Assembly (NCBI GenBank): GCA_002773755.1
Contig: PFAG01000014.1
Coordinates: 6,634-70,633, forward strand
Reading direction: 5' to 3'
DNA length: 64,000 nt
Source of the DNA: Candidatus Colwellbacteria bacterium CG10_big_fil_rev_8_21_14_0_10_41_28
GTDB lineage: Bacteria; Patescibacteriota; Minisyncoccia; UBA6257; Colwellbacteraceae
Shown here: piece by piece, positions 769 through 55,728 of the stretch
Layout of the letters: every line of letters begins with the position of its first letter
Numbering within the stretch: the first letter of the stretch is position 1
Made by a program: the position numbers and the translations under genes
Notes under the pieces: model-generated
Told to the model about the DNA's origin: nothing
The model's input: only the letters and a program-made list of their open reading frames with translations
The model's database searches: none

Positions 769-2043
769 GTGCTTATACACGAAAAAGTTTTTTATGGAGG
801 GGTATTCTTTATATTAGGAGTGTTCGGGGCAGCCTTTGATATAAGCTTTTTGATATCAGTATCCCTTATGACTATTGCAGTCTTCTTACTTAAGGCAGAT
901 TTTAGATTTCGCTTAATATTAATACTTTTGTTTATCTTAGGTTCTTTTTATCTAAACTTTTATGAAAGCCTGAATAAAGTCAGAGTTGATTCTAGAGCAG
1001 AAGAATTAACGGGGACTATAATCTCAAAACCAGAATATAGATTAGAATATTCTCTCATAGAGGTTGAACTGGAAGATCCAAACAGTGGAGTAGTTAGAGT
1101 ATATCTTGAGCCAGGAAAATCTTTCAGATATGGAGATAAAGTTTCTATAGAGGGAGAGCTTACAACAACCAGTAGGGGAAACACTATAATATCTTTTCCT
1201 AAAAACATAATAAAAATCGAACCAGCTCAAAGAACTGTTAGAGGAACCCTCTTTTATATTAGAGATAGTCTTGTTTATAACTTAGAAAAGGTTTTGCCTG
1301 CTTCTAAGTCATCTTTAGCTGCGGGGATTTTGATTGGAGAAAGAACGGGTTTTACAAAAGAGTTTGAGGAATCTATGAGCGGGAGTGGAACTACTCACAT
1401 AGTGGCTCTCTCTGGATATAATGTTGCTGTAATTGTAGTAATACTTTCTTCCATATTCGGATATCTTTTAAATAGAAGGTGGGCTTTCTATGCTAGCCTC
1501 ATGGCTGTTCCACTTTTTGTAATCATGACTGGAGCAGAGCCGTCCGTGGTCAGGGCTGCTATTATGGGTCTCGTGCTTGTGTCAGCAGAGTATCTAGGCA
1601 GACAATATAGCTTTAAGAATATCTTAGTGCTAACTGCCCTAGCTATGCTTATATACAACCCCACCTTAATTATCAGCCTTAGCTTCCAACTGTCCTTCGC
1701 TGCTCTACTGGGGATCGTATACATATATCCTTGGTTGAGCGAAAAGTTTAATATATCTCAAGAAGGCTTTCTCTCTTGGAGAAAGAATGCTCTTCAAACC
1801 TTTTCTGCTCAGCTTGCTGTTACTCCCGTAATTCTTTTAGGAGTCGGCAAGATATCCCTCACTTCTCTTTTCGCAAACACGTTAATTCTTGAATTTATCC
1901 CCCTAACCATGCTCTTGAGTTTCATGGTGGCTACTATCGGATTTATATCTTTTCCAGTTTCTCAAGTAATCGGTTGGGGACTTAATCTATTATTAAGCTA
2001 TGAAGTATTCATTATTAATTTTTTTGGTTCTCTTTGGACTTAA
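769..2043 (+). CDS. comEC: ComEC/Rec2 DNA internalisation channel, N-terminal part (DUF4131-like OB region + competence domain)
   Basis: Polytopic membrane protein with ComEC competence-domain motifs (GERTGF..SGTTHIVALSGYNV..GAEPSVVRAAIMG). Confidence 0.75.
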   Translation: MLIHEKVFYGGVFFILGVFGAAFDISFLISVSLMTIAVFLLKADFRFRLILILLFILGSFYLNFYESLNKVRVDSRAEELTGTIISKPEYRLEYSLIEVELEDPNSGVVRVYLEPGKSFRYGDKVSIEGELTTTSRGNTIISFPKNIIKIEPAQRTVRGTLFYIRDSLVYNLEKVLPASKSSLAAGILIGERTGFTKEFEESMSGSGTTHIVALSGYNVAVIVVILSSIFGYLLNRRWAFYASLMAVPLFVIMTGAEPSVVRAAIMGLVLVSAEYLGRQYSFKNILVLTALAMLIYNPTLIISLSFQLSFAALLGIVYIYPWLSEKFNISQEGFLSWRKNALQTFSAQLAVTPVILLGVGKISLTSLFANTLILEFIPLTMLLSFMVATIGFISFPVSQVIGWGLNLLLSYEVFIINFFGSLWT

Positions 2044-2839
2044 TCTATTTGCTTGGAATCAGATACTCTATCCAGAGAATACAGATAACTTGAGGATTCA
2101 CATACTTGATGTGGGACAAGGGGATAGTCAGCTGATAGAGCTTCCTGGAGGAGTTCAAATATTAAGTGATGCCGGTCCGGGAAAAGAAGTTCTATTTGAG
2201 CTAGATAAAATTATTCCTCCGACAGATAGGTATATTGACCTACTCTTCATTTCACATCCTCAGGTAGACCATTTTGGAGGATTTACAGACGTTATAGATT
2301 CATATGATATCGGTCTAATAGTCTATTCAGGCATTGAGGGGAATAGTGACGCTTGGCAAGAATTTTCAGACAAGGTTGCGCAAAAAGGAATTCCTGTTGC
2401 GCACCTTAGTGCTCGGGATAAGATTCAATACAAAGATTCGCGTATAGACATCCTTTCCCCTGAAGACGAGCCGTATGGTGGGTTGAATGATAACTCGTTA
2501 GTCTTCCTCTTGGATTCAGAAGGCGCTAAAGCACTTTTTACAGGAGACATCGGTTTTGATGTTGAAAATAGACTTATCGAGAATGATCTGGATATAGATA
2601 TCCTTAAAGTCGCTCATCACGGATCAAGATACTCTAGTGGGTTAGAGTTTCTGAGAAAGGTCACCCCAAGGATATCTTTGATTGGAGTTGGGGATAATAA
2701 TTTTGGTCACCCTCACGGGAATACTCTCGGCAGATTAGTCTCAGTCGGCTCAGAGATATATAGAACAGATATAAATGGTCTCATATCCCTAGACATAGAT
2801 GACGGTATGGTTAAGATCGAAACAGAGAAAATTGAGTAA
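2000..2839 (+). CDS. comEC: ComEC C-terminal metallo-beta-lactamase domain encoded as separate overlapping ORF
   Basis: N-terminal TM then MBL motifs (HILDVGQGDS..HPQVDHFGG..AHHGS); overlaps upstream ORF by 44 nt in another frame. Confidence 0.65.
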   Translation: MKYSLLIFLVLFGLNLFAWNQILYPENTDNLRIHILDVGQGDSQLIELPGGVQILSDAGPGKEVLFELDKIIPPTDRYIDLLFISHPQVDHFGGFTDVIDSYDIGLIVYSGIEGNSDAWQEFSDKVAQKGIPVAHLSARDKIQYKDSRIDILSPEDEPYGGLNDNSLVFLLDSEGAKALFTGDIGFDVENRLIENDLDIDILKVAHHGSRYSSGLEFLRKVTPRISLIGVGDNNFGHPHGNTLGRLVSVGSEIYRTDINGLISLDIDDGMVKIETEKIE

Positions 2840-2873: not shown

Positions 2874-4268
2874 ATGAGAGTCTTAATTAAAGAGACACCC
2901 GAGCATATCGGAGAGAAAATAGAGCTAAATGGCTGGGTTGATACTAGGAGAGATCATGGCAAGCTCATTTTTATTGACCTTAGAGACAGGAGTGGGTTGG
3001 TCCAGGTTGTCTTCAACGGAAAGAACCAAGAAGCGTATAAAATAGCAGACTCCTTAAGGCCAGAGTGGGTTATTAAATTAGTTGGTGAAGTAAAAGAAAG
3101 ACCGGATGGTATGAAAAACAATGATCTCCCAACAGGTGGAGTGGAGATCTCTGTTGAGAAAATAGAGGTATTAAATGAATCCGAAACCCCTCCTTTCGAC
3201 ATCCATTCAGATGGATTGGATATCAATGAAGCCCAAAGATTAAAGTATCGATACCTAGATCTCAGAAGGCCAAGATTACAAAGAAACATAAAGTTAAGGT
3301 CTGAGCTTATCCAAAAAGCTAGAGAGATTCTTTTTGAAATGGATTTTACTGAGATAGAGACTCCGCTATTGAGTAAGTCTACTCCAGAGGGTTCTCGAGA
3401 TTTTATAGTGCCATCAAGACTATATCCAGGTAAATTCTTTGCTTTACCACAAAGCCCTCAGCAATATAAGCAACTTTTAATGACAGCTGGTTTTGAAAGA
3501 TATTTCCAGATTGCCAGAGCTATCAGAGACGAAGATTTAAGAGCAGATAGGGGGTTTGAGCATACCCAAATAGATATGGAGTTGAGCTTTGTTGACAGGG
3601 ATCAGTTTATGGCTATCGACGAAGAGCTTATGACCAGGGTTTTTGAGGGTCTTGGGTATAAGATCAAAGAAAAGCCATTCCCTGTTGTTACATACGAAGA
3701 GGCTATGGAAAAGCACGGGGCAGATAAATTCGATCTTCGAGGAGATAAGGATAAAGAGGACGGTGTATTGGCCTTTGCATGGGTTGTGGATTTCCCATTC
3801 TTCGAAAAAGATGATGGTGGTGGTTGGACCTTTACACACAACCCTTTCTCAATGCCAAAAGAAGAGTTTTTGGACGATTTCCTTAAAGGAAAGAATATTG
3901 AGAATATATTAACCACCCAATACGATCTTGTCTGCAATGGACTTGAGGTTGGTGGTGGAAGTATTAGGGCTCATAAACCAGAGATCCTTGAGTCAACCTT
4001 CAAGATTATGGGTTATGACAAAGAGACAATAGACGAGCAATTTGGATACATGCTTGAGGCTTTCAAATATGGAGCGCCTCCACATGGAGGAACGGCTCAC
4101 GGAGTTGAGCGTCTTCTAATGGCAGCAACTGGAGAAGAGTACTTGAGAGAAGTGCAGGCTTTTCCACAGTCTGGCACTGGTCAAACATCCGTAATGAATG
4201 CACCATCAGAAATTAGCAAGAAACAGTTGGAAGAATTGGGAATAGAAATTAAAAAGAAAAAGAAATAA
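2874..4268 (+). CDS. aspS: aspartate--tRNA ligase (short form, apparently lacking GAD insertion)
   Basis: N-terminal OB anticodon-binding domain, class II motifs, FALPQSPQQYKQLLM signature; 464 aa. Confidence 0.85.
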   Translation: MRVLIKETPEHIGEKIELNGWVDTRRDHGKLIFIDLRDRSGLVQVVFNGKNQEAYKIADSLRPEWVIKLVGEVKERPDGMKNNDLPTGGVEISVEKIEVLNESETPPFDIHSDGLDINEAQRLKYRYLDLRRPRLQRNIKLRSELIQKAREILFEMDFTEIETPLLSKSTPEGSRDFIVPSRLYPGKFFALPQSPQQYKQLLMTAGFERYFQIARAIRDEDLRADRGFEHTQIDMELSFVDRDQFMAIDEELMTRVFEGLGYKIKEKPFPVVTYEEAMEKHGADKFDLRGDKDKEDGVLAFAWVVDFPFFEKDDGGGWTFTHNPFSMPKEEFLDDFLKGKNIENILTTQYDLVCNGLEVGGGSIRAHKPEILESTFKIMGYDKETIDEQFGYMLEAFKYGAPPHGGTAHGVERLLMAATGEEYLREVQAFPQSGTGQTSVMNAPSEISKKQLEELGIEIKKKKK

Positions 4269-21502: not shown

Positions 21503-22262
21503 TTCTTTTGTTAAATCGCCAGAGAAGATAGAAAAGATCAAACACTCTGGTCGTATTTTGGGCTTTGCTCTTAAGAAACTAAGAGAGCATGTTGCCCCTG
21601 GGGTTAGCCTTCTTGAGCTAGAAGATCTTGCGAGAGAAGTTATAGAAGAGCATGGTGGTAAGCCAGCCTTCCTCGGATATCAACCATACGGAGCTGAGGA
21701 ACCTTTCCCTTTTGCTCTCTGTACATCAGTTAACGATGTTATTGTGCACGGTAGGCCATATGACCTTGTTCTTAAAGATGGGGATATTGTCTCTTTAGAT
21801 TTGGGAGTTAACTGGAAGGGAGGCATTAGCGACGCTGCTATATCTATTGGTGTTGGAAAAGTTTCAAAGCAAGATCAGAAGTTAATACAGGTAACCAAAG
21901 AAGCCTTGGAGGAGGGGATTAAGGTAATTAAGGCGGGAAAGACAACTGGAGATATTGGACATGCAATAGAGAAGAAAATTCTCTCTGGTGGTGGAAAGAT
22001 TATCCATAGTCTTACTGGTCACGGTGTTGGTGATAAGGTTCATGAAGATCCACCTATATACAACTATGGAAGTCCTGGAAGTGGAGTTACCCTAGAAGAG
22101 GGAATGGTTATAGCGATTGAGCCTATGGTCTCTTTTACCAGTGGCTATATTAAACAGTTAGAGGATGATAGCTACGCCACCATGGATGGCAGTAGATCGG
22201 CCCATTTTGAGCATACAGTACTTGTTAGGAAGAACTCTGGAGAGATATTAACTAAAGGCTAG
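21495..22262 (+). CDS. map: type I methionine aminopeptidase
   Basis: Pita-bread fold motifs; ends the ribosomal superoperon. Confidence 0.85.
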   Translation: MSSSFVKSPEKIEKIKHSGRILGFALKKLREHVAPGVSLLELEDLAREVIEEHGGKPAFLGYQPYGAEEPFPFALCTSVNDVIVHGRPYDLVLKDGDIVSLDLGVNWKGGISDAAISIGVGKVSKQDQKLIQVTKEALEEGIKVIKAGKTTGDIGHAIEKKILSGGGKIIHSLTGHGVGDKVHEDPPIYNYGSPGSGVTLEEGMVIAIEPMVSFTSGYIKQLEDDSYATMDGSRSAHFEHTVLVRKNSGEILTKG

Positions 22263-23580
22263 GGGACATATCGAAGGTAGATAGGTTCTTGCTTGTCGCA
22301 ATATATATAAGATCAGCATCACCATCATAGTGGAATGTTCTGGCATCTTCTGAAATTAATTCTTTAGAGATTGGAGCCTCTTTGTCTATCTCCCAGAAAT
22401 ACAATTTATTGTCCGTTCTTACTAAAAGGTGGGCATAATCCCTATACCACTCCAGTTGAGAAAAGTTTCCCTCAAAACTTCCTATATCAATAATCTTTGT
22501 TTCATTTCGCTTCTTTCTATATATAGAAATACTAGAGTTACCTCGTATCATGGCAATTTGTTCTCCGCCTGGAGATAAATAGAAATCTACAATATCTTCA
22601 GCAATTTTTTCGAGGTTTGTCGAATATAGGTATAGTTCATTATTATCAGTCAAAAGAAAGGTTCCTGTGGCGGATAGTCTTATTTTTTTATACGAACCGA
22701 ATTCACTGGTCTCTTCGGAAAATTTTAGAGTTGTTGAATTATTAGTTTTGGGGTCATAGACCATAACAGTTCCTTCGTTATTAATATAAGTCACAAGATC
22801 ATCCTCCTGAATTGAGAATTCGTTTGTGTCAGAGGTAATTAGATCTATCCCTAGATCATCTGTATCTAAGTAGTAGATAGCTCTTTCAGTTGAGAGTATC
22901 ATTTCTCTCCCATCACCAATCAAAGCTGCTTTAGACAAATCAACTTCACCAGGGAGATCTAAGACAGACTCTTTGAGATTATTAAAGACTAGTGTCACGT
23001 TAAGCTGATTTTGTAGCGTAAAAGCGTTTACTAAGTAATAGTTATCCGTAGTAATACTTTTTGTTAGAGCAATTCCATTCCTTTTATTGTCAACAATTCT
23101 ATGTCCAAGTACCTGTTCGTCATTAATCCACACGCCATTATTATTTTGAAAAATAATCTGCTCATCTCCAAGAATAGAAAAGTCTGAGACAACTTGATCT
23201 ATAAATAGTTCCGGCGATATGTCTGGGACTAAAACCACTGAGTCAAATGTAGTTACTGTCTCTGGGAGGACAACGGGATTTTTCTTCCACTTCCTATACC
23301 CCTCTCTTGTAACCAAAAGTTCGTGAACATCTGGAACAAGGTTAGTAATCAAAGTTCCTCTCTGGAGAAGACCCGACTGATTCTTAACAGCAGCATCATT
23401 CAAGAGTATCTCTGCATCTGTCGGGATGCTTGAGATGTATATACCGCCAGTTTCATTAAAAGAGAAAGATGCAAAATCAAAATTGAATCCTCTAGAATTT
23501 TGGATTATAAGAACACTCGCCAAAAGAAAAAGGAGAGTAAATGAATAAAATATGAATCGTCTGGTCTTAATAGACATCAA
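22252..23580 (-). CDS. hypothetical membrane-anchored extracytoplasmic protein (PEGA-like N-domain + beta-rich region)
   Basis: N-terminal TM; GGIYISSIPTDAEILLND..LVTREGYRKWK resembles PEGA domain; no enzyme motif. Confidence 0.55.
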   Translation of the reverse strand: MMSIKTRRFIFYSFTLLFLLASVLIIQNSRGFNFDFASFSFNETGGIYISSIPTDAEILLNDAAVKNQSGLLQRGTLITNLVPDVHELLVTREGYRKWKKNPVVLPETVTTFDSVVLVPDISPELFIDQVVSDFSILGDEQIIFQNNNGVWINDEQVLGHRIVDNKRNGIALTKSITTDNYYLVNAFTLQNQLNVTLVFNNLKESVLDLPGEVDLSKAALIGDGREMILSTERAIYYLDTDDLGIDLITSDTNEFSIQEDDLVTYINNEGTVMVYDPKTNNSTTLKFSEETSEFGSYKKIRLSATGTFLLTDNNELYLYSTNLEKIAEDIVDFYLSPGGEQIAMIRGNSSISIYRKKRNETKIIDIGSFEGNFSQLEWYRDYAHLLVRTDNKLYFWEIDKEAPISKELISEDARTFHYDGDADLIYIATSKNLSTFDMSPSL

Positions 23581-24867: not shown

Positions 24868-25878
24868 ATGTTAACTAGAAAAATAGGAATTGATTTAGGA
24901 ACAACTAACACTGTTGTTTTTGTTCCCGGAAGGGGATTTATCATAAACGAACCAACAATCGTTGCTTTAAACGAACAAGACAATAGCGTTCTGGCTGTTG
25001 GAAGAGAGGCAAAAGACATGGTGGGTAAGACTCCTGGAGATATAAGGGCCTACAGACCTCTTAAAGATGGTGTTGTTGCAGACTACTACATAACAAGAGC
25101 TATGCTTAAATACTTTATAAGCAAGGCGGTTGGTAGCTTTAATCTAATTAGACCAGATGTGGTTATATCAGTCCCAGCAGGGATAACTGCAACTGAAAGA
25201 AGGGCAGTTAAAAACGCTGCAGTAGAGGCTGGGGCAAAGAATGCCCACCTAGTTAAAGAGCCTCTTCTTGCTGCACTAGGAGCTGGAATAACTATTAATT
25301 CATCTTCAGGCAACATGATTGTTAATATCGGCGGAGGGACAGCTGAGGTTGCTGTTATCTCTCTCGGAGGAATTGTTACCTTCTCAAGTTTAAGAGTTGC
25401 TGGTAATAAATTTGATACATCTATAATGGAGTATGTTAAGAAAAACTATTCCGTATCTATCGGAGAACAGACTGCAGAGGCAGCCAAGATTGCTATTGGA
25501 ACAGCTGTACCAACTAAATCAAAACTAGAATTTCGAATCAGAGGAAGAGATTTGGTTACTGGTCTACCAAAAGACCTTAACATAACATCAAATGAAATTG
25601 CAGAGGCCATTAATCCACTTCTAATGGATATAGCATCATCAGTTCAGGGAGTATTTAACGAAACTCCACCCGAGCTTGTTGCAGATGTTATGGAAAAAGG
25701 AATCATTCTCTCTGGAGGAAGTTCTGGGTTAAGGAACATAGACGAGTTCTTTAAGAGACTGTTAGGGGTTCCGGCGTACGTTGCCGAAGATGCGATTCTT
25801 TGTGTAGCAAAAGGAACAGGACTGATCTTAGACCACCTAGATGTATACAAAAAAACACTTCTAAGCAAGAACCGATAA
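24868..25878 (+). CDS. mreB: rod shape-determining protein MreB (copy 1)
   Basis: IGIDLGTTNT.. actin-like ATPase. Confidence 0.9.
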   Translation: MLTRKIGIDLGTTNTVVFVPGRGFIINEPTIVALNEQDNSVLAVGREAKDMVGKTPGDIRAYRPLKDGVVADYYITRAMLKYFISKAVGSFNLIRPDVVISVPAGITATERRAVKNAAVEAGAKNAHLVKEPLLAALGAGITINSSSGNMIVNIGGGTAEVAVISLGGIVTFSSLRVAGNKFDTSIMEYVKKNYSVSIGEQTAEAAKIAIGTAVPTKSKLEFRIRGRDLVTGLPKDLNITSNEIAEAINPLLMDIASSVQGVFNETPPELVADVMEKGIILSGGSSGLRNIDEFFKRLLGVPAYVAEDAILCVAKGTGLILDHLDVYKKTLLSKNR

Positions 25879-28224: not shown

Positions 28225-29441
28225 TGAAACAGTCTCATTTATACACAAAGACAAGAAAAACTCTTCCAAGTGGAGAGGTTGCTAAAAATGCACAACTTTT
28301 AATCAAAGCAGGATATATTCACAAAGAACTCGCTGGAGTGTATGCATTCTTACCACTTGGCATAAGGGTCATGAATAAAATAGAGGACCTTATTCGCAGC
28401 CATATGGATAAGATAGGAGGCCAAGAGATACTGCTCTCATCACTTCAAGATCCAGAGCTTTGGAAAAAGAATAATCGTTGGGATGATGATGATGTTGATA
28501 TCTGGTTTAAGGATAGAGATGAAAGAATTGGTTTTGCCTGGTCCCATGAAGAACCAATGATATCGATGATCGAGCACCATGTCTCTTCATACAAAGACCT
28601 TCCTGTATATGTGTATCAATTCCAGAACAAATTTAGGAATGAGCCAAGGGCCAAAAGTGGACTTCTAAGAGGAAGAGAATTCATTATGAAAGACCTATAC
28701 TCCTTCACTAAGAATCAGGATGAATTAGATGAATTCTACAGAAAGATCACAGATGCTTATAAAGAGATTTTTAATGTTGCTGGGATAGGGGATCAAACCT
28801 ACTACACTTTTGCTAGCGGTGGAGCCTTTACAGAGTTTAGTCATGAGTTCCAAACCCTAAGTGATGCTGGTGAAGATACTATATATATCGATAGGGATAA
28901 GAAAATTGCCATTAACGAAGAGGTGTACTCAAAAGAAATAGTGAAAGAGCTTGGACTAGATGAGAAAAAACTGGAGAAAGTTAAATCAATTGAGACGGGA
29001 AATATCTTCAAATTTGGAACTGGATATTCAGAGAAGCTTAACCTCAAATACAAAGATGCAGATGGAAAGGATCAGTTTGTATATCTTGGTAGCTATGGAA
29101 TCGGTCTCAGCAGATTAATGGCAACTGTGGTTGAGGTTCTTTCAGATGATGGTGGCATCGTTTGGCCAGAGAGCATCAGCCCATTCCAAGTTCACCTAAT
29201 CGAACTTACGGAAGGCTTAGGAGAGGATCTATACCAAAAATTACTGGATAATAATATTGAAGTTCTCTATGATGATCGACAGATTGGAGCTGGGGAGAAA
29301 TTTAATGATGCCGATTTGATTGGAATTCCATGGAGGTTAGTTGTTAGCGAAAAAACAGATGGCAAAGTTGAGATCAAAAACAGGTCAGAGAAATCAGCTC
29401 AATTAATTACTAAAGATGAAGCTATTAAAAAATTTATATAA
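28224..29441 (+). CDS. proS: proline--tRNA ligase (short form without editing insertion)
   Basis: N-terminal ProRS motif (AGYIHKELAGVYAFLPLGIRV), class II core, C-terminal anticodon-binding domain. Confidence 0.75.
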   Translation: MKQSHLYTKTRKTLPSGEVAKNAQLLIKAGYIHKELAGVYAFLPLGIRVMNKIEDLIRSHMDKIGGQEILLSSLQDPELWKKNNRWDDDDVDIWFKDRDERIGFAWSHEEPMISMIEHHVSSYKDLPVYVYQFQNKFRNEPRAKSGLLRGREFIMKDLYSFTKNQDELDEFYRKITDAYKEIFNVAGIGDQTYYTFASGGAFTEFSHEFQTLSDAGEDTIYIDRDKKIAINEEVYSKEIVKELGLDEKKLEKVKSIETGNIFKFGTGYSEKLNLKYKDADGKDQFVYLGSYGIGLSRLMATVVEVLSDDGGIVWPESISPFQVHLIELTEGLGEDLYQKLLDNNIEVLYDDRQIGAGEKFNDADLIGIPWRLVVSEKTDGKVEIKNRSEKSAQLITKDEAIKKFI

Positions 29442-30462
29442 AAGTGTTGGAATAGATTTAGGGACAACTAATTTTCTTGTATATCTCAAAAATAGAGGAA
29501 TTGTAGTAGACGAGCCTACTCTAGTAGCCATCAACAATAGAACCAACCAAGTATTAGCCATAGGAGAAGAGGCAAAGAAGATGCTCGACAGGACTCCTGC
29601 TCATGTAAGACTTGTAAAACCACTTAGTGGGGGAGTTATTTCAGACTTTGAAGTTACAGAAGAAATCATAAAATATTTCCTAAGAAAGATTAGTGAAAAA
29701 AGTCTTTTCTCAAGATTCCATGTTGCTGCTGTTAGTATTCCAACCAACCTAACAGAGGTAGAAAGAAAATCGGTTGAAGATGCAGTTCTTTCGGCTGGAG
29801 CTACCAAAGTCCTTTTGGTTGAAGAGCCAATAGCTAGCGCAGTTGGAACTAGGCTACCGATTGAGGAAGCAACGGCTAACATGATTGTCGATATTGGAGG
29901 GGGAACTACCGAGATATCAATCATATCTGTTGGAGGAGCGGTTGTTTCGAAGAGTATTAAAATCGCTGGAAACAAATTCAACGAAGATATAATTCGATTC
30001 ATTAAGAATGAGTACAAATTATTGATAGGGGAGCCAACTGCAGAGAATCTTAAAATTAATGTTGGTTCAGCTATCCCAATAGAAGATAAGCTTGAGATGA
30101 AAGTCCGTGGAAGAGATATGTCGACCGGCCTGCCCAAAGAGATAACCGTTAGAGACATCCAGATAAGATCTGCTATGCAAAAATCGATTAAGAGTATAGG
30201 AGAAACTGTAAAAAATATCTTAGAAGAGTCTCCTCCTGAACTAGTGGGAGATGTCTTGGAAAGAGGGATCTTTCTCTCTGGTGGAGGGGCACTATTAAGA
30301 GGGATGGATAAATTTCTAGAAAAGGAAACTCAAGTTGATGTAACAGTTGTAGATGATCCATTAACTTGTGTCGTGAGGGGACTGGGGATAATCATCGAAG
30401 ACATTCCTCGATACGAAACAATTCTTTCAAACCAAGAAAAGCCAAAACCAATTAATCTATGA
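29416..30462 (+). CDS. mreB: rod shape-determining protein MreB (copy 2), heads mreBCD-mrdA cluster
   Basis: VGIDLGTTN.. actin-like ATPase; second paralog. Confidence 0.85.
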   Translation: MKLLKNLYKSVGIDLGTTNFLVYLKNRGIVVDEPTLVAINNRTNQVLAIGEEAKKMLDRTPAHVRLVKPLSGGVISDFEVTEEIIKYFLRKISEKSLFSRFHVAAVSIPTNLTEVERKSVEDAVLSAGATKVLLVEEPIASAVGTRLPIEEATANMIVDIGGGTTEISIISVGGAVVSKSIKIAGNKFNEDIIRFIKNEYKLLIGEPTAENLKINVGSAIPIEDKLEMKVRGRDMSTGLPKEITVRDIQIRSAMQKSIKSIGETVKNILEESPPELVGDVLERGIFLSGGGALLRGMDKFLEKETQVDVTVVDDPLTCVVRGLGIIIEDIPRYETILSNQEKPKPINL

Positions 30463-31554: not shown

Positions 31555-33405
31555 ATGAAGAAAAGCTTTAAAAGAGAAATCCATTTTGAAGAAGTGGTGG
31601 CCGATACCATATCTGCTCCATACCTAAACAGGGTTGAGAAACCAATTAGCCAAAACGTCTTTTATATCTTTTTTCTTGCCTTCGTACTCCTTGGCTCAAT
31701 TTTTGCGATCAGAACAACTGTGCTCGCTGGTATCAATGGAGATTCATACAAGGAGCGAGCCAACAGCAACATTAATCAGAATATTCCCTTAATTGCTCCT
31801 CGGGGAATCATTACGGATAGAAATGGAGAACCGCTAGTAGAGAATCAGGCAGTTTTCAGCGTTTTCTTAAATGTTGATCAAATGGTTTTAAATAATGAGC
31901 GTGACGAGGTTCTAAGAGCTACTAAAGATATATTGGGAATTGAAAGCGCGGATGTTTTGAGACTGATTGAAGATACTAATCTTGAAGACTACAGCGATAT
32001 TATAATTGCTCGTGAGGCAACCAGAGAACACGTCTTGGAGGTTAAGGGGTTGAATCTAACCTCTCTTAATGTAGAAGAGAGTTTCAAGCGAGACTACAAA
32101 GAAGAGGCTTTCTCTCATGTTGTTGGGTATGTCAGTCTTGCATCAAAGGAGGATCTTCGAGACAACGAGAGTATTATTTTAAACGAGTTTGTTGGAAGAG
32201 ATGGGTTGGAGCTTACATACGACAATGTTTTAAGAGGGGAGAATGGTTCCGTTACTCTGGCTAGAAATTCCATAGGGGATATAGACGAAATCCTTAAAAC
32301 AAAAGATCCAGTTGTTGGAGAAACACTTCAGACAACCATAGATGCCGATCTCCAAAGATATTTTTATGAACGTATGGGTGAGGGCCTTAGGTTGTTAAAC
32401 AGGAAAAGAGGCCTGGGTATTGCTATAGACCCAAGAAATGGAGAAATCCTTTCTTTAATCAGCTATCCATCCTTCGATTCGAATGATGTTTCCCCATATC
32501 TTAACGATAAAGACCTCCCTCTCTTTAATAGAGCTGTCTCTGGTGTATATAATCCGGGCTCAACAATAAAGCCTTTTCACGCAACAGCTGCCTTGAATGA
32601 AGAGATTATCGACCCGAGTAAAGAGATCTACTCAGCTGGGTATATAGAAATTCCTAACCCATACTTCCCAGACCAACCGAGTATCTTTGTAGACTGGAAG
32701 GCACATGGGTGGGTTGATATATATTCCGCTCTAGCCAAATCAAGCAACATCTATTTCTATGCCATAGGGGGAGGATTTGAAGACCAAGAGGGGTTGGGAA
32801 TAGATCGGTTAAATAAATATTGGAGAACTTTTGGTTTTGATAAAAAAACTGGGATAGATCTACCGAATGAATCAAAAGGGTTCCTACCTAATCCGGATGA
32901 GAAGGAAAACAGGACCGATATAATCTGGAGATTAGGAGACACATATAACGTATCAATAGGCCAAGGAGATCTTTCCATAACGCCCCTAGAGCTCGTTGCT
33001 GGAATCTCAGCCCTAGTTAACGATGGAATCGGATATACCCCTCACCTGCACAAGAAAACAGTTCCAGAAATATTCATCAATATTTCAGAAATGAAAAACA
33101 AGCTCGAAATAATTGATAAGGGGATGCAAGACACAATATATAAGCCATATGGAACCGGGAATCTCCTCCAGAACATTCCAATGATAATTGGTGGTAAGAC
33201 TGGTAGTGCCCAGGTTTTTGGGAATACTCAAACCAATGCTCTCTTTGTGGCATATGCAGCAAAAGATGAAGAGAGTAAACCAGAGATACTCATTTTGGTT
33301 CTAGTCGAAGATGCAAAAGAGGGGAGTCTTAACACTGTTCCAATAGTGAAAGATGTTCTTGAATGGTATTATGACAACAGAATAAAAACCGATGCCCAAG
33401 AGTAA
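31555..33405 (+). CDS. mrdA: penicillin-binding protein 2 (class B transpeptidase)
   Basis: Dimerisation + transpeptidase domain, KTGS motif. Confidence 0.8.
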   Translation: MKKSFKREIHFEEVVADTISAPYLNRVEKPISQNVFYIFFLAFVLLGSIFAIRTTVLAGINGDSYKERANSNINQNIPLIAPRGIITDRNGEPLVENQAVFSVFLNVDQMVLNNERDEVLRATKDILGIESADVLRLIEDTNLEDYSDIIIAREATREHVLEVKGLNLTSLNVEESFKRDYKEEAFSHVVGYVSLASKEDLRDNESIILNEFVGRDGLELTYDNVLRGENGSVTLARNSIGDIDEILKTKDPVVGETLQTTIDADLQRYFYERMGEGLRLLNRKRGLGIAIDPRNGEILSLISYPSFDSNDVSPYLNDKDLPLFNRAVSGVYNPGSTIKPFHATAALNEEIIDPSKEIYSAGYIEIPNPYFPDQPSIFVDWKAHGWVDIYSALAKSSNIYFYAIGGGFEDQEGLGIDRLNKYWRTFGFDKKTGIDLPNESKGFLPNPDEKENRTDIIWRLGDTYNVSIGQGDLSITPLELVAGISALVNDGIGYTPHLHKKTVPEIFINISEMKNKLEIIDKGMQDTIYKPYGTGNLLQNIPMIIGGKTGSAQVFGNTQTNALFVAYAAKDEESKPEILILVLVEDAKEGSLNTVPIVKDVLEWYYDNRIKTDAQE

Positions 33406-38883: not shown

Positions 38884-39290
38884 GGTGAGGTAATTCAGGC
38901 AATAGCCTTCTTTTTTTACCCGATATTGCTCTGTAACGATTGATCTTTACCTAAAGGGTAATAATAAAAGAGGGAGGAAAGTCCGGACACCTACTTGGTT
39001 TTCCAGGTTAAAAAGGTAGCGGGTAATACCCGTCGTGCGAAAGCATAGGGGTGCGAGCAGAGACGCTGCAATATCGAGAGATACGCAGGAGCCCGATCCC
39101 AACGTAGACGGCTCAACTCAGTTATAGGGATAAAAGACTGAGGTGAAACGGCTAAATCCCTACCCAGGTGCAAGGCCGAGCTCCGACATTCGGAGAGTGC
39201 CGCTAGAACTATTGAGCAATCATTAGTCCAGATAGATTATTGCCACCTTCTTCGGAAGGGACAGAATCCGGCTTATGAATTGCCTCCAAA
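38884..39290 (+). ncRNA. rnpB: RNase P RNA (bacterial type A), ends approximate
   Basis: Universal P4 motifs GAGGAAAGTCCGG.. and ..ACAGAATCCGGCTTAT; GNRA-type elements; GC-rich relative to surroundings. Confidence 0.85.
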
Positions 39291-54487: not shown

Positions 54488-54523
54488 TCGGTATCACCAA
54501 TTTGGTATCCCTTACCGAGCAGG
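54476..54523 (+). terminator. 12-bp perfect hairpin CCTGCTCGGTAA..TTACCGAGCAGG overlapping stop codon
   Basis: Inverted repeat seen directly; no strong U-tract, so terminator vs RNA-stability element uncertain. Confidence 0.4.
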
Positions 54524-54561
54524 GCTACCAATTAGTAGGAAGCGTTATAATATTTCTATAT

Positions 54562-55728
54562 ATGAAAAAAGTTGTTTTTCTTACTCTATCTACACTAGTT
54601 CTGACCAGTTTTTTTATACCAATAATTGTTGCTCAAGAGAGTAGGGCTGAAATAAATTTCTTCTACAGTGAAACCTGCCCACACTGTCACGAAGAGAGTA
54701 AATTCCTAGATACTCTAGAAGAAGATTATGGTGATCAGATACAGGTAAATAGATATACGGTAAGTGATCCGATAAGAGATTCTGGAAATCTTGCTCTGGT
54801 TAGAAATTTTGCAGAGGAAGCCGGAATAGGGGAGAGTGTTGGATTAGTTCCAATAACCTTCATTAGCGATGATGCATATGTGGGATATACAGATAAGGCT
54901 GTGCCACCAGGAATCTATCCTGCTATAGCAACACCCGAATCAATCATGGCCTCTATAGAGGAGATTGTTGGCCCACTTGAAAGGAAAGAGGGGAAATCCG
55001 GATTATTCGCCAATATAGATTATGAAAATTATTCTCTCCCAGTCCTAGCCGCCCTAATGGGATTCCTGGATGGTTTTAATGTCTGTTCATTGGGAGCTCT
55101 CATAATCATCCTTGGATTAGTTCTCCAGCTCCAATCAAGACGTAAGATTATGCTTTATGGTGGAATATTCATATTTACCACAGCTCTTATATATGGGTTT
55201 CTTATAAATCTTTGGTATCAATTTTTCACAGTTGCAGAAGGTTATCTTGGAATATTAAGACCACTTATAGGTATCCTTGGTGTTGTTGGAGGAGCATATT
55301 TTATAAAAGAGTTCTTCCGTCTAAGAAATGTCGGCCTGGTTTGTAAAACAACTGGAGCCTCTTTCATAGACAAGATGACAAAGAGAACTGAGAAGATATT
55401 TAACAACCCACACAATATTTTATATATAGCAGGAGGGGTGCTGTTGTTTGCAGCCATTATTACATTAGTTGAGTTTCCATGCTCGGCCGCAGTTCCAGTC
55501 GCTTTTGCTGGACTACTTGCAGAACAGGGGATTGGAAATGCCGCTAGTCTTGGATTAATGGCAATTTTCATCTTTTTCTATCTCTTAGATGAAATAATTG
55601 TCTTTGCCCTAGCTGTCTGGAAAATGAGAATAGTCTCAAGTTCACCAGAGCTCACAACTTGGGCAACTCTTTTAGAAGGACTATTCCTTTTGGCTCTAGG
55701 CATTTATTACATCTCTTCAATCTTATAA
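54562..55728 (+). CDS. thioredoxin-like (CPHC) domain fused to CcdA/DsbD-type membrane thiol-disulfide transporter
   Basis: Signal/TM, CPHC motif, then multi-TM region with Cys in TM helices (FNVCSLGAL, EFPCSAAVP). Confidence 0.6.
   Translation: MKKVVFLTLSTLVLTSFFIPIIVAQESRAEINFFYSETCPHCHEESKFLDTLEEDYGDQIQVNRYTVSDPIRDSGNLALVRNFAEEAGIGESVGLVPITFISDDAYVGYTDKAVPPGIYPAIATPESIMASIEEIVGPLERKEGKSGLFANIDYENYSLPVLAALMGFLDGFNVCSLGALIIILGLVLQLQSRRKIMLYGGIFIFTTALIYGFLINLWYQFFTVAEGYLGILRPLIGILGVVGGAYFIKEFFRLRNVGLVCKTTGASFIDKMTKRTEKIFNNPHNILYIAGGVLLFAAIITLVEFPCSAAVPVAFAGLLAEQGIGNAASLGLMAIFIFFYLLDEIIVFALAVWKMRIVSSSPELTTWATLLEGLFLLALGIYYISSIL

Follow-up and report, generated by a model that had tools for sequence, protein, structure and literature searches.

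A two-gene ComEC in a Colwellbacteria genome segment, with the channel and a predicted membrane-anchored nuclease encoded by overlapping reading frames

In natural transformation, DNA is imported through a universal channel, ComEC, whose metallo-beta-lactamase (MBL) domain is a nuclease that removes the strand that is not imported. In a 64,000-nucleotide stretch of the genome of Candidatus Colwellbacteria bacterium CG10_big_fil_rev_8_21_14_0_10_41_28 (contig PFAG01000014.1, positions 6,634 to 70,633; hereafter the window), the two parts of this protein are encoded by two overlapping open reading frames (ORFs), of which ORF1 specifies the channel and ORF2 a predicted membrane-anchored MBL nuclease. 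Taken as a whole, the evidence is very probably best explained by a true two-gene ComEC such as is standard in Patescibacteria (the Candidate Phyla Radiation, CPR), a group of ultra-small bacteria. Comparison with homologous loci indicates that the split is real, that it is old and that it is typical of the lineage.

The MBL domain is not part of the channel polypeptide. ORF1 is closed by a TAA stop codon and the domain is carried by a separate ORF in the +1 frame, the two sharing 44 nucleotides (nt; Table 1), and the same arrangement is seen in all close relatives. Both ORFs are collinear on the whole-protein profile TIGR00361, with amino acids (aa) 164-413 of ORF1 corresponding to profile positions 112-371 and aa 9-260 of ORF2 to positions 418-663. 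Their scores of 78.3 and 99.6 bits, respectively, are both under the whole-protein cut-off of 190, and profile positions 372-417 are matched by neither. The same order is found on the solved ComEC of PDB entry 30bt, where aa 170-410 of ORF1 align with residues 214-455 and aa 22-274 of ORF2 with residues 525-794. ORF coordinates, frames and Pfam matches agree with the original prediction, made from the sequence alone, that ComEC is encoded here as two overlapping ORFs, one for the competence domain and the other for the MBL domain.

ORF1 matches the Pfam Competence family at E 2e-45, TIGR00360 at 73.9 bits (cut-off 36.5) and the ComEC of 30bt at E 3.4e-22, while its match to DUF4131/OB scores 31.6 bits, exactly equal to the cut-off. 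The AlphaFold2 (AF2) model of ORF1 (predicted local distance difference test, pLDDT, 83.4; predicted template modelling score, pTM, 0.76) begins with helices at residues 3-22, 27-39 and 45-68, continues into a beta-barrel, and after it has short helices, six long helices and two more (366-393 and 395-421), at which the chain ends. When this model was searched against the PDB with Foldseek, only OB-fold matches were returned from a fold library without full-length ComEC entries; among them was the ComEC OB domain 9iew. The OB-like N-terminal region and competence domain that had been proposed for this ORF are thus recovered in the DUF4131 and PF03772 matches and in the beta strands of the model. 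On the model, the predicted order of elements is three transmembrane helices (TM1-3), the OB fold, the non-spanning (NS) helices NS1-4, TM4-9 and NS6/NS7, without TM10, CH1, TM11 or the MBL domain. The best 120 homologs of ORF1 are 250-486 aa long and none of them (0/120) contains Lactamase_B. Y411 of ORF1 is unchanged in 38 of 38 homologs.

ORF2 matches Pfam Lactamase_B at E 1e-12. Its best match by sequence and by fold is PDB entry 9ic4, the ComEC MBL domain of Moorella glycerini, as expected from the earlier assignment of ORF2 to the ComEC nuclease domain: identity is 30%, phmmer gives E 3.1e-29, and Foldseek with the ORF2 model gives E 3.7e-24, TM-scores of 0.81/0.85 and a root-mean-square deviation of 2.4 Å, against 7.5e-15 for the runner-up. 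The AF2 model of ORF2 (pLDDT 92) consists of a helix at residues 2-23, a lower-confidence linker and the MBL fold; the helix corresponds to the N-terminal hydrophobic segment that the original prediction had seen in this ORF. In the M. glycerini domain the functional residues are the metal ligands H598, D600, D602, H603 and D700 and the DNA-binding H725 and S728 (PMC12455585). Their equivalents in ORF2 are H86, Q88, D90, H91, D183, H206 and S209, which are unchanged in 25 homologs with the exception of Q88, and H237 is also kept. From the alignment and the model, ORF2 is predicted to be a ComEC-type MBL nuclease with its catalytic residues intact.

The same 25 homologs bear on the anchor. W19 is unchanged in them, and all 25 have at least one Lys or Arg ahead of the anchor helix. 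Behind the helix, 21 carry a net acidic stretch, and in the other 4 this stretch is balanced or net basic. Because Lys/Arg precedes the helix and mostly acidic residues follow it, the helix is read, for the most part, as an N-in/C-out signal anchor. The best 120 homologs of ORF2, at 45-56% identity, are all stand-alone MBL proteins of 249-292 aa. They come from Colwellbacteria, Wolfebacteria, Curtissbacteria, Magasanikbacteria, Harrisonbacteria and other CPR lineages, and some of those of about 280 aa are already named ComEC or MBL-fold hydrolase in databases.

The junction between the two ORFs is dual-coding. In the ORF1 frame the overlap specifies the C-terminal tail (Y)EVFIINFFGSLWT, followed by the stop codon; in the +1 frame it specifies MKYSLLIFLVLFGL, the first half of the ORF2 membrane anchor. 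The identical 44-nt overlap occurs in seven lineages (L001, L002-4, L005, L091, L092, L093 and L094) whose proteins are only 45-56% identical. L091-L094 were found by exact-protein look-ups, and a metagenome scan with ORF2 alone gave 6 loci. In all seven lineages the ORF2 ATG lies within Tyr-Glu/Asp codons of ORF1 (TAT GAN) and the ORF1 TAA within (Phe/Leu)-Asn codons of ORF2. Invariant nucleotides number 22 of 48 at the overlap, compared with 13 of 48 upstream and 5 of 48 downstream, a higher conservation than that of the flanks that would be explained by dual coding, which is expected to constrain both frames. The ORF1 tail has the form YE(I/V)F(I/V)I(N/K/E)(L/F)F..NW(L/F)-stop and, in 91 of 120 homologs, ends exactly 14 aa from the conserved Tyr, from which it follows that ORF1 is read in its frame through to its own stop. 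Lineages with the overlap share the gene order mnmA-(cob adenosyltransferase)-comEC_N-MBL-aspS-ndk/adk. The aspS gene downstream encodes a short aspartyl-tRNA synthetase of 464 aa and follows the MBL gene in all close relatives, so that mnmA-comEC_N-MBL-aspS forms a stable synteny block of the clade.

Because of a TAA at 1994-1996, the frame of ORF2 is open only from 1997, which confines any change of frame to 1997-2043. Within this interval lies a run of seven T residues (T7). Deletion of a single T from the run in silico gives one continuous ORF of 689 aa, and homopolymers are classic error sites, both of which would suit a sequencing or assembly error in which one extra T at 2019-2025 breaks a single comEC. 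However, L001, a contig from a separate record that matches the window at 99.81% identity (11 mismatches and 2 gaps in 6.8 kb), has the same junction, T7 run included. In the six further lineages, which are at 45-56% identity, the 44-nt overlap is again the same but the T-runs differ or are missing: across the seven the run reads T7, T5, T4, T5, T5 and T6, and in L094 it is absent (CTGCTTG). In addition, all 240 of the 240 top homologs of the two ORFs are unfused, and a virtual fusion would be one TM helix short for an MBL domain on the outside. An error of this kind is extremely improbable. Differences between the window and L001 cluster at one place only, 732-763, in the form of a small indel or shift; this stretch is intergenic and just upstream of the GTG at 769, and the coding regions differ by single substitutions only.

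A recent inactivating frameshift, leaving a comEC pseudogene in a reduced genome, could produce overlapping out-of-frame pieces of this appearance, and CPR genomes are reduced. Yet both ORFs are full length by comparison with their 120 nearest homologs, keep the invariant functional residues and give confident AF2 models (pLDDT 83 and 92). The junction, moreover, has been kept in deeply diverged lineages, and its conservation exceeds that of the flanks (22 versus 13 and 5 of 48). The probability that the locus is a pseudogene is negligible.

The organization of comEC was surveyed more widely in a sample of 80 GTDB species-representative loci, scanned with an alignment of ORF2 homologs. Of these, 42 were informative split loci, nearly all labelled CPR, and the two ORFs were separate in 42/42. 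They were adjacent in 22 of the 42 and separated by 0.3-2.5 kb in another 10. The junctions in the 22 adjacent loci measure +44, 41, 31, 26, 17, 14, 8, 4, 0, -4, -12, -36 and -40 nt, overlaps being counted as positive and gaps as negative, and all three frame relations (0, +1 and +2) are seen among adjacent relatives. In 20 of the 22 adjacent loci, inspected base by base, the MBL gene had its own start codon and a following hydrophobic helix; the start codon is ATG in all but L073, where it is GTG. Fused loci, in which the MBL domain forms the C-terminus of a long ORF, numbered 23 and were confined to Chloroflexota, Bacillota, Myxococcota, Deltaproteobacteria, Nitrospirota and Gemmatimonadota. 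The comparison of sister genomes that had been proposed as a check therefore gives a consistent answer: comEC is split throughout the informative CPR loci, and the fused loci are all from outside the CPR.

The genes found between separated CPR pairs are unrelated, being an ArsR-like regulator at one locus and RNase III at another. In five loci (L024, L027, L042, L049 and L067) from one group of Patescibacteria, what separates comEC_N from the MBL gene is an Fe/Mn superoxide dismutase gene read from the opposite strand. Finding it repeatedly points to an insertion specific to that clade, and a superoxide dismutase is noteworthy in organisms that are usually described as anaerobes. Clostridia and archaea, too, have stand-alone genes whose products share 32-38% identity with the ComEC-type MBL, with no competence-domain gene within about 3 kb on either strand. 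The former, from Clostridia and Bacillota, are those of L030 (Paraclostridium bifermentans), L070 (Clostridium psychrophilum) and L022, L025 and L036 (Bacillota metagenome-assembled genomes); the archaeal ones are L074 (Methanosarcina), L080 (Methanoculleus) and L032 (Hadesarchaea). These may be surface nucleases, or may reflect transfer from or to CPR, and since several of the records are metagenome-assembled genomes, mis-binning is possible.

These loci also bear on the possibility of a programmed +1 frameshift, or of transcriptional slippage, at UUU-UUU-U, which would yield a fused ComEC alone or beside the separate products. If the ribosome slipped by +1 on UUU UUU U (2020-2026), it would reach the ORF2 frame, and the length of the overlap is strikingly constant within the subclade. 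The original prediction had proposed a search for slippery heptamers, and one is found in the T7 run, but the run varies or is absent in relatives and L094 reads CTG CTT GCT at this position. In other CPR relatives the two ORFs are set apart by in-frame stops, by gaps that can exceed 1 kb or by a gene on the opposite strand, or stand in a -1 frame relation. Folding of the junction RNA is no better than that of shuffled controls (z = -0.34), so that no unusual, frameshift-stimulating structure is apparent there. The ORF1 tail ..NW[LF]-stop and the position of its stop are kept in 91 homologs, which would be unexpected if the frame were left, and the fusion product would have the wrong number of TM helices. 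Programmed frameshifting is thus very unlikely, if slightly less so than an error or a pseudogene. Among the three options first considered for this junction, the genuine split stands; error or pseudogene falls on the shared 44-nt overlap and on L001, and programmed frameshifting on the T-run, the frame relations and the RNA. Recoding of UGA, which is found in SR1, a CPR lineage (PMC3812714), was also considered as the cause of the split and rejected, as the stop of ORF1 is TAA.

No Shine-Dalgarno (SD) motif was found ahead of ORF2. This is uninformative because the organism scarcely uses SD: an SD-like motif (GGAG, GAGG or AGGA, 4-20 nt upstream) precedes only 5 of 48 large ORFs of the window. 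The regions upstream of the window ORFs are A/T-rich, and translation appears to start largely without SD pairing.

The place at which the protein has been cut can be set against the cryo-electron microscopy structure of Neomoorella carbonis ComEC, in which TM9 is followed by the buried NS6/NS7, TM10, the cytoplasmic CH1, TM11, a flexible linker and the periplasmic MBL domain (PMC13539106). The channel of the solved protein is made up of TM4-9 and NS6, with TM10 and TM11 peripheral; TM11 is mobile and invisible in one protomer, and the MBL domain is held through a small OB-MBL interface and the flexible linker (PMC13539106). When concatenated split pairs were aligned with fused proteins, together with ORF1 C-termini, two classes of CPR protein emerged. 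In the long class (465-486 aa, for example L012, L046 and L058), ORF1 continues past the YE...F helix into a YY-containing helix aligned with TM10 of fused proteins and a Lys/Asn-rich tail, and the MBL gene begins with Lys/Arg and a TM11-like helix. On this alignment the ancestral CPR cut is placed in the cytoplasmic TM10-TM11 loop, as in the long class. In the short class (about 427-440 aa; 91 of the best 120 homologs, the window included), ORF1 ends 14 residues into the NS7-like helix and is without TM10 and CH1. The YY-containing TM10 and the Lys/Arg-rich loop present in fused and long-class proteins are missing from ORF1 of the window in the alignment, and compared with 30bt residues 456-524 the window pair is about 34 residues short. 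The absence of TM10 and CH1 from the short class is consistent with this shortfall and with the unmatched TIGR00361 positions 372-417. Alignment and models together indicate that the subclade of the window has additionally lost a beta-strand, TM10 and CH1, a loss that would have brought the two genes into their fixed 44-nt overlap.

Such a loss would have consequences for topology. Only one TM helix remains between the outer-leaflet NS7 equivalent and the MBL domain, and a fused product would therefore be expected to have its MBL domain in the cytoplasm. Fusion would thus probably leave the nuclease on the side of the membrane where it does not belong. Topology has probably locked in the split, with separate proteins leaving each topology free of the other.

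The composition of the anchor suggests how this state may have arisen. The first 14 codons of the ORF2 anchor appear to be NS7 codons read in the +1 frame; since T-rich hydrophobic codons stay hydrophobic when shifted, an anchor could be read from them. The invariant W19 region, in turn, aligns with TM11 of long-class proteins, and a single deletion would explain this combination of an NS7-codon anchor and a TM11-aligned W19. It may be proposed that, in a Colwellbacteria-like subclade, a single deletion within comEC, which by then was split, took out both TM10 and the cytoplasmic loop. The NS7 codons (YEIFIINLFS), read in the +1 frame, would then have become the first half of the anchor (MK.LSLIFLVLIGF), with the conserved Tyr-Glu codons (TAT GAA) supplying the new ATG. 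The resulting 44-nt dual-coding segment would have been frozen in both frames, and the split would have become topologically irreversible, since re-fusion would send the nuclease to the cytoplasm. Taken whole, from deletion through overprinted anchor, frozen overlap and irreversible split to a CPR-wide nuclease acting in trans, this scenario is tentative and falls a little short of an even chance. Were it true, the ComEC nuclease would act in trans, separately anchored, across a large fraction of bacterial diversity, and CPR would constitute a natural experiment in which the covalent link between nuclease and channel is dispensable.

A working scheme for the two products can be drawn by analogy with fused ComEC. 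ORF1 would form the DNA channel subunit, built from three TM helices at the N-terminus, an OB fold outside the cytoplasm, TM4-9 and NS6/NS7, which are buried. ORF2, translated from its own ATG, would be a type-II anchored protein with a cytoplasmic N-terminus, one TM helix and a short linker, and its MBL nuclease would lie outside the membrane. There it may dock non-covalently on the OB fold and channel entrance via the small OB-MBL interface, as in fused ComEC, and degrade the non-transported strand while the other strand enters through TM4-9. Uptake of this kind might serve transformation, nucleotide salvage or both, and the overlap would ensure co-expression of the two genes. The assembly of both products into one uptake machine is suggested by this analogy. 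The isolated ComEC MBL domain has nuclease activity alone, but it is weak and without measurable DNA affinity (PMC12455585), and ComEC MBL is more active in the full-length context beside the OB fold; docking is plausible for these reasons.

Several points weigh against the two-gene machine as a whole. The Gln at position 88 of ORF2 stands where the M. glycerini domain has the Asp D600. There, the D600A substitution leaves about one fifth of the initial rate, a roughly five-fold loss, and D600 is the least critical ligand (PMC12455585). The T7 run could permit some incidental slippage in this organism, and the naming of NS6 and NS7, like the topology argument, rests on sequence alignment and the AF2 model. 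In 10 of the 42 split loci there is no competence gene within about 3 kb of the MBL gene. Finally, the supplementary tables for the transformable Saccharibacterium S. epibionticum ML1 show no annotated ComEC-type MBL adjacent to comEC (PMC10633639). Its ComEC, SEML1_0777, is a protein of 482 aa whose only domains are Competence and DUF4131; its gene lies between those for YebC and tRNA-Lys, and the sole protein annotated as 'MBL fold' in this strain is one of 211 aa (PF13483) encoded elsewhere (SEML1_0132) (PMC10633639). A nuclease partner is therefore not universally required or linked.

The last two points would also fit a different arrangement, in which the split is real and the ORF2 product serves by itself as a surface nuclease anchored in the membrane, for instance in nucleotide scavenging, rather than as a docked subunit of the channel. 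Ten sampled CPR MBL genes stand apart from competence genes, stand-alone TM-anchored homologs occur in Clostridia and archaea without adjacent comEC, and S. epibionticum was transformed with an MBL-less ComEC and no adjacent ComEC-type MBL. Moreover, CPR are without nucleotide synthesis, and the isolated domain is active by itself (PMC12455585). However, the MBL gene adjoins or overlaps comEC_N in 22 of 42 split loci, with the overlap fixed in the clade of the window; the isolated domain is a poor enzyme that works better within the full-length protein, beside the OB fold; and the closest fused relatives of ORF2 are ComEC C-terminal domains. An independent nuclease is accordingly unlikely, although it is by some distance the most serious of the alternatives to a two-gene ComEC.

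The remainder of the window is a Patescibacteria segment of 39.9% GC, poor in SD motifs, whose closest named relatives are Candidatus Colwellbacteria (Parcubacteria). Its housekeeping genes include mnmA, aspS, ndk, secY, two mreB genes, PBP2, pgk, bipA, mgtE, gltX and the RNase P RNA, and no further competence genes were found among the 20 large window ORFs scanned. The two MreB paralogs are both full length, with a site-2 protease (M50) and a class II tRNA synthetase encoded between them; the mreB/PBP2 set makes an elaborate rod-shape module for a reduced genome. Only two tRNA genes are present in the 64 kb.

Table 1. Features of the comEC locus and, in the last rows, of the rest of the window (positions are those of the window)
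Feature	Position	Strand	Basis or remark
ORF1, comEC channel subunit	769..2043	+	GTG start, TAA stop, 424 aa
OB-fold domain of ORF1 (aa 80-151)	1006..1221	+	AF2 beta strands, Foldseek OB folds, DUF4131
Competence (channel) domain of ORF1 (aa 188-418)	1330..2022	+	PF03772
TAT GAA, ORF1 Tyr411-Glu412 codons	1999..2004	+	Hold ORF2 ATG (2000-2002); TATGA invariant in 7 lineages
ORF2, predicted membrane-anchored ComEC-type MBL nuclease subunit	2000..2839	+	ATG start, 279 aa
Dual-coding overlap, 44 nt	2000..2043	+	ORF1 C-terminal tail and first half of ORF2 anchor
Predicted signal-anchor helix of ORF2 (aa 2-23), TM11 equivalent of fused ComEC	2003..2068	+	AF2, TIGR00361 alignment from aa 9
T7 homopolymer	2019..2025	+	Sole obvious slippery/error-prone site in shift interval; not conserved
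TAA stop of ORF1	2041..2043	+	Within ORF2 codons CTT AAT (Leu14-Asn15)
MBL catalytic domain of ORF2 (aa 29-268)	2084..2803	+	Alignment to 9ic4, invariant columns
Predicted metal/DNA-binding residues H86, Q88, D90, H91	2255-2272	+	Residue-level alignment to 9ic4
Predicted metal/DNA-binding residue D183	2546-2548	+	Residue-level alignment to 9ic4
Predicted metal/DNA-binding residues H206-S209	2615-2626	+	Residue-level alignment to 9ic4
Predicted metal/DNA-binding residue H237	2708-2710	+	Residue-level alignment to 9ic4
aspS	2874-4268	+	
442-aa ORF	22252-23580	-	Sub-threshold beta-propeller match only
MreB paralogs	24868-25878 and 29416-30462		Pfam E about 1e-127 each, 3.5 kb apart
PBP2	31555-33405		
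Bacterial class A RNase P RNA	38887-39290	+	120.6 bits, full-length model match
tRNA-Gln-CTG	42147		
408-aa ORF	54502-55728	+	No Pfam match at E <= 1e-5
tRNA-Glu-CTC	59542	-	

The two-gene arrangement has some practical implications. Recent structural papers treat MBL-less ComEC orthologues as of uncertain competence. Many of the MBL-less ComECs of Patescibacteria are nevertheless not free of a nuclease, as an anchored MBL with an intact site is encoded next door, and surveys that score competence potential from domain architecture are affected. Annotators and pseudogene callers should not 'repair' this junction. The TM10/TM11 region also suggests a natural permissive split site, with possible use in the expression and engineering of ComEC.

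The finding is ordinary for the lineage of the window, and the absence of fusion in CPR was already known. According to Méheust 2019, the ComEC-MBL fusion is essentially absent from CPR (family fam000603), and Wang et al. 2023 report that SEML1_0777 of S. epibionticum is required for natural transformation. Like these unfused proteins, ORF1 of the window has Competence and DUF4131 without an MBL domain in a CPR host. What the accessible parts of these papers describe is the absence of fusion, however, and not a separately encoded, anchored MBL partner; nor was a description of such a partner, its adjacency, the 44-nt overlap or the loss of TM10 found in the open-access literature searched. The anchored partner, the overlap and the loss of TM10 are thus a modest new detail. 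S. epibionticum ComEC, at 482 aa, has the length of the long class, whereas ORF1 belongs to the shorter class without TM10.

The programmed frameshifts of prfB (+1) and dnaX (-1) resemble the locus in having two overlapping frames with a homopolymeric run in the overlap. Unlike them, the window has no conserved slippery site, frame relation or stimulatory structure, and its downstream ORF has a conserved start.

The closest comparison is with canonical ComEC/Rec2, as in B. subtilis and in the solved structures (30bt of Neomoorella carbonis; 9vc6, 9vc9, 9vcb and 9vcf). The OB fold, channel and MBL domain occur in the same order, the Mn ligands and DNA-binding residues are conserved, and the MBL domain follows a TM helix and is predicted to lie outside. 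In the window, by contrast, these modules are on two polypeptides, cut where TM10-CH1-TM11 lie in the canonical protein; there are 9+1 TM helices in place of 11, TM10 and CH1 being absent; and Q88 replaces the second-position Asp of the H-x-D-x-D-H motif. ORF2 has the same HHGS, GHP and H..DH motifs as 9ic4 of Moorella glycerini, which is an engineered fragment of a fused protein, while ORF2 is a natural stand-alone protein with its own anchor. A channel polypeptide without a strand-degrading nuclease is also found in H. pylori, whose ComEC is without the MBL domain. In S. pneumoniae, where the MBL domain of ComEC is degenerate, the strand is degraded by a separate membrane-bound nuclease, EndA; this is an unrelated enzyme, whereas the predicted trans-acting nuclease of the window is the orthologous MBL domain of ComEC.

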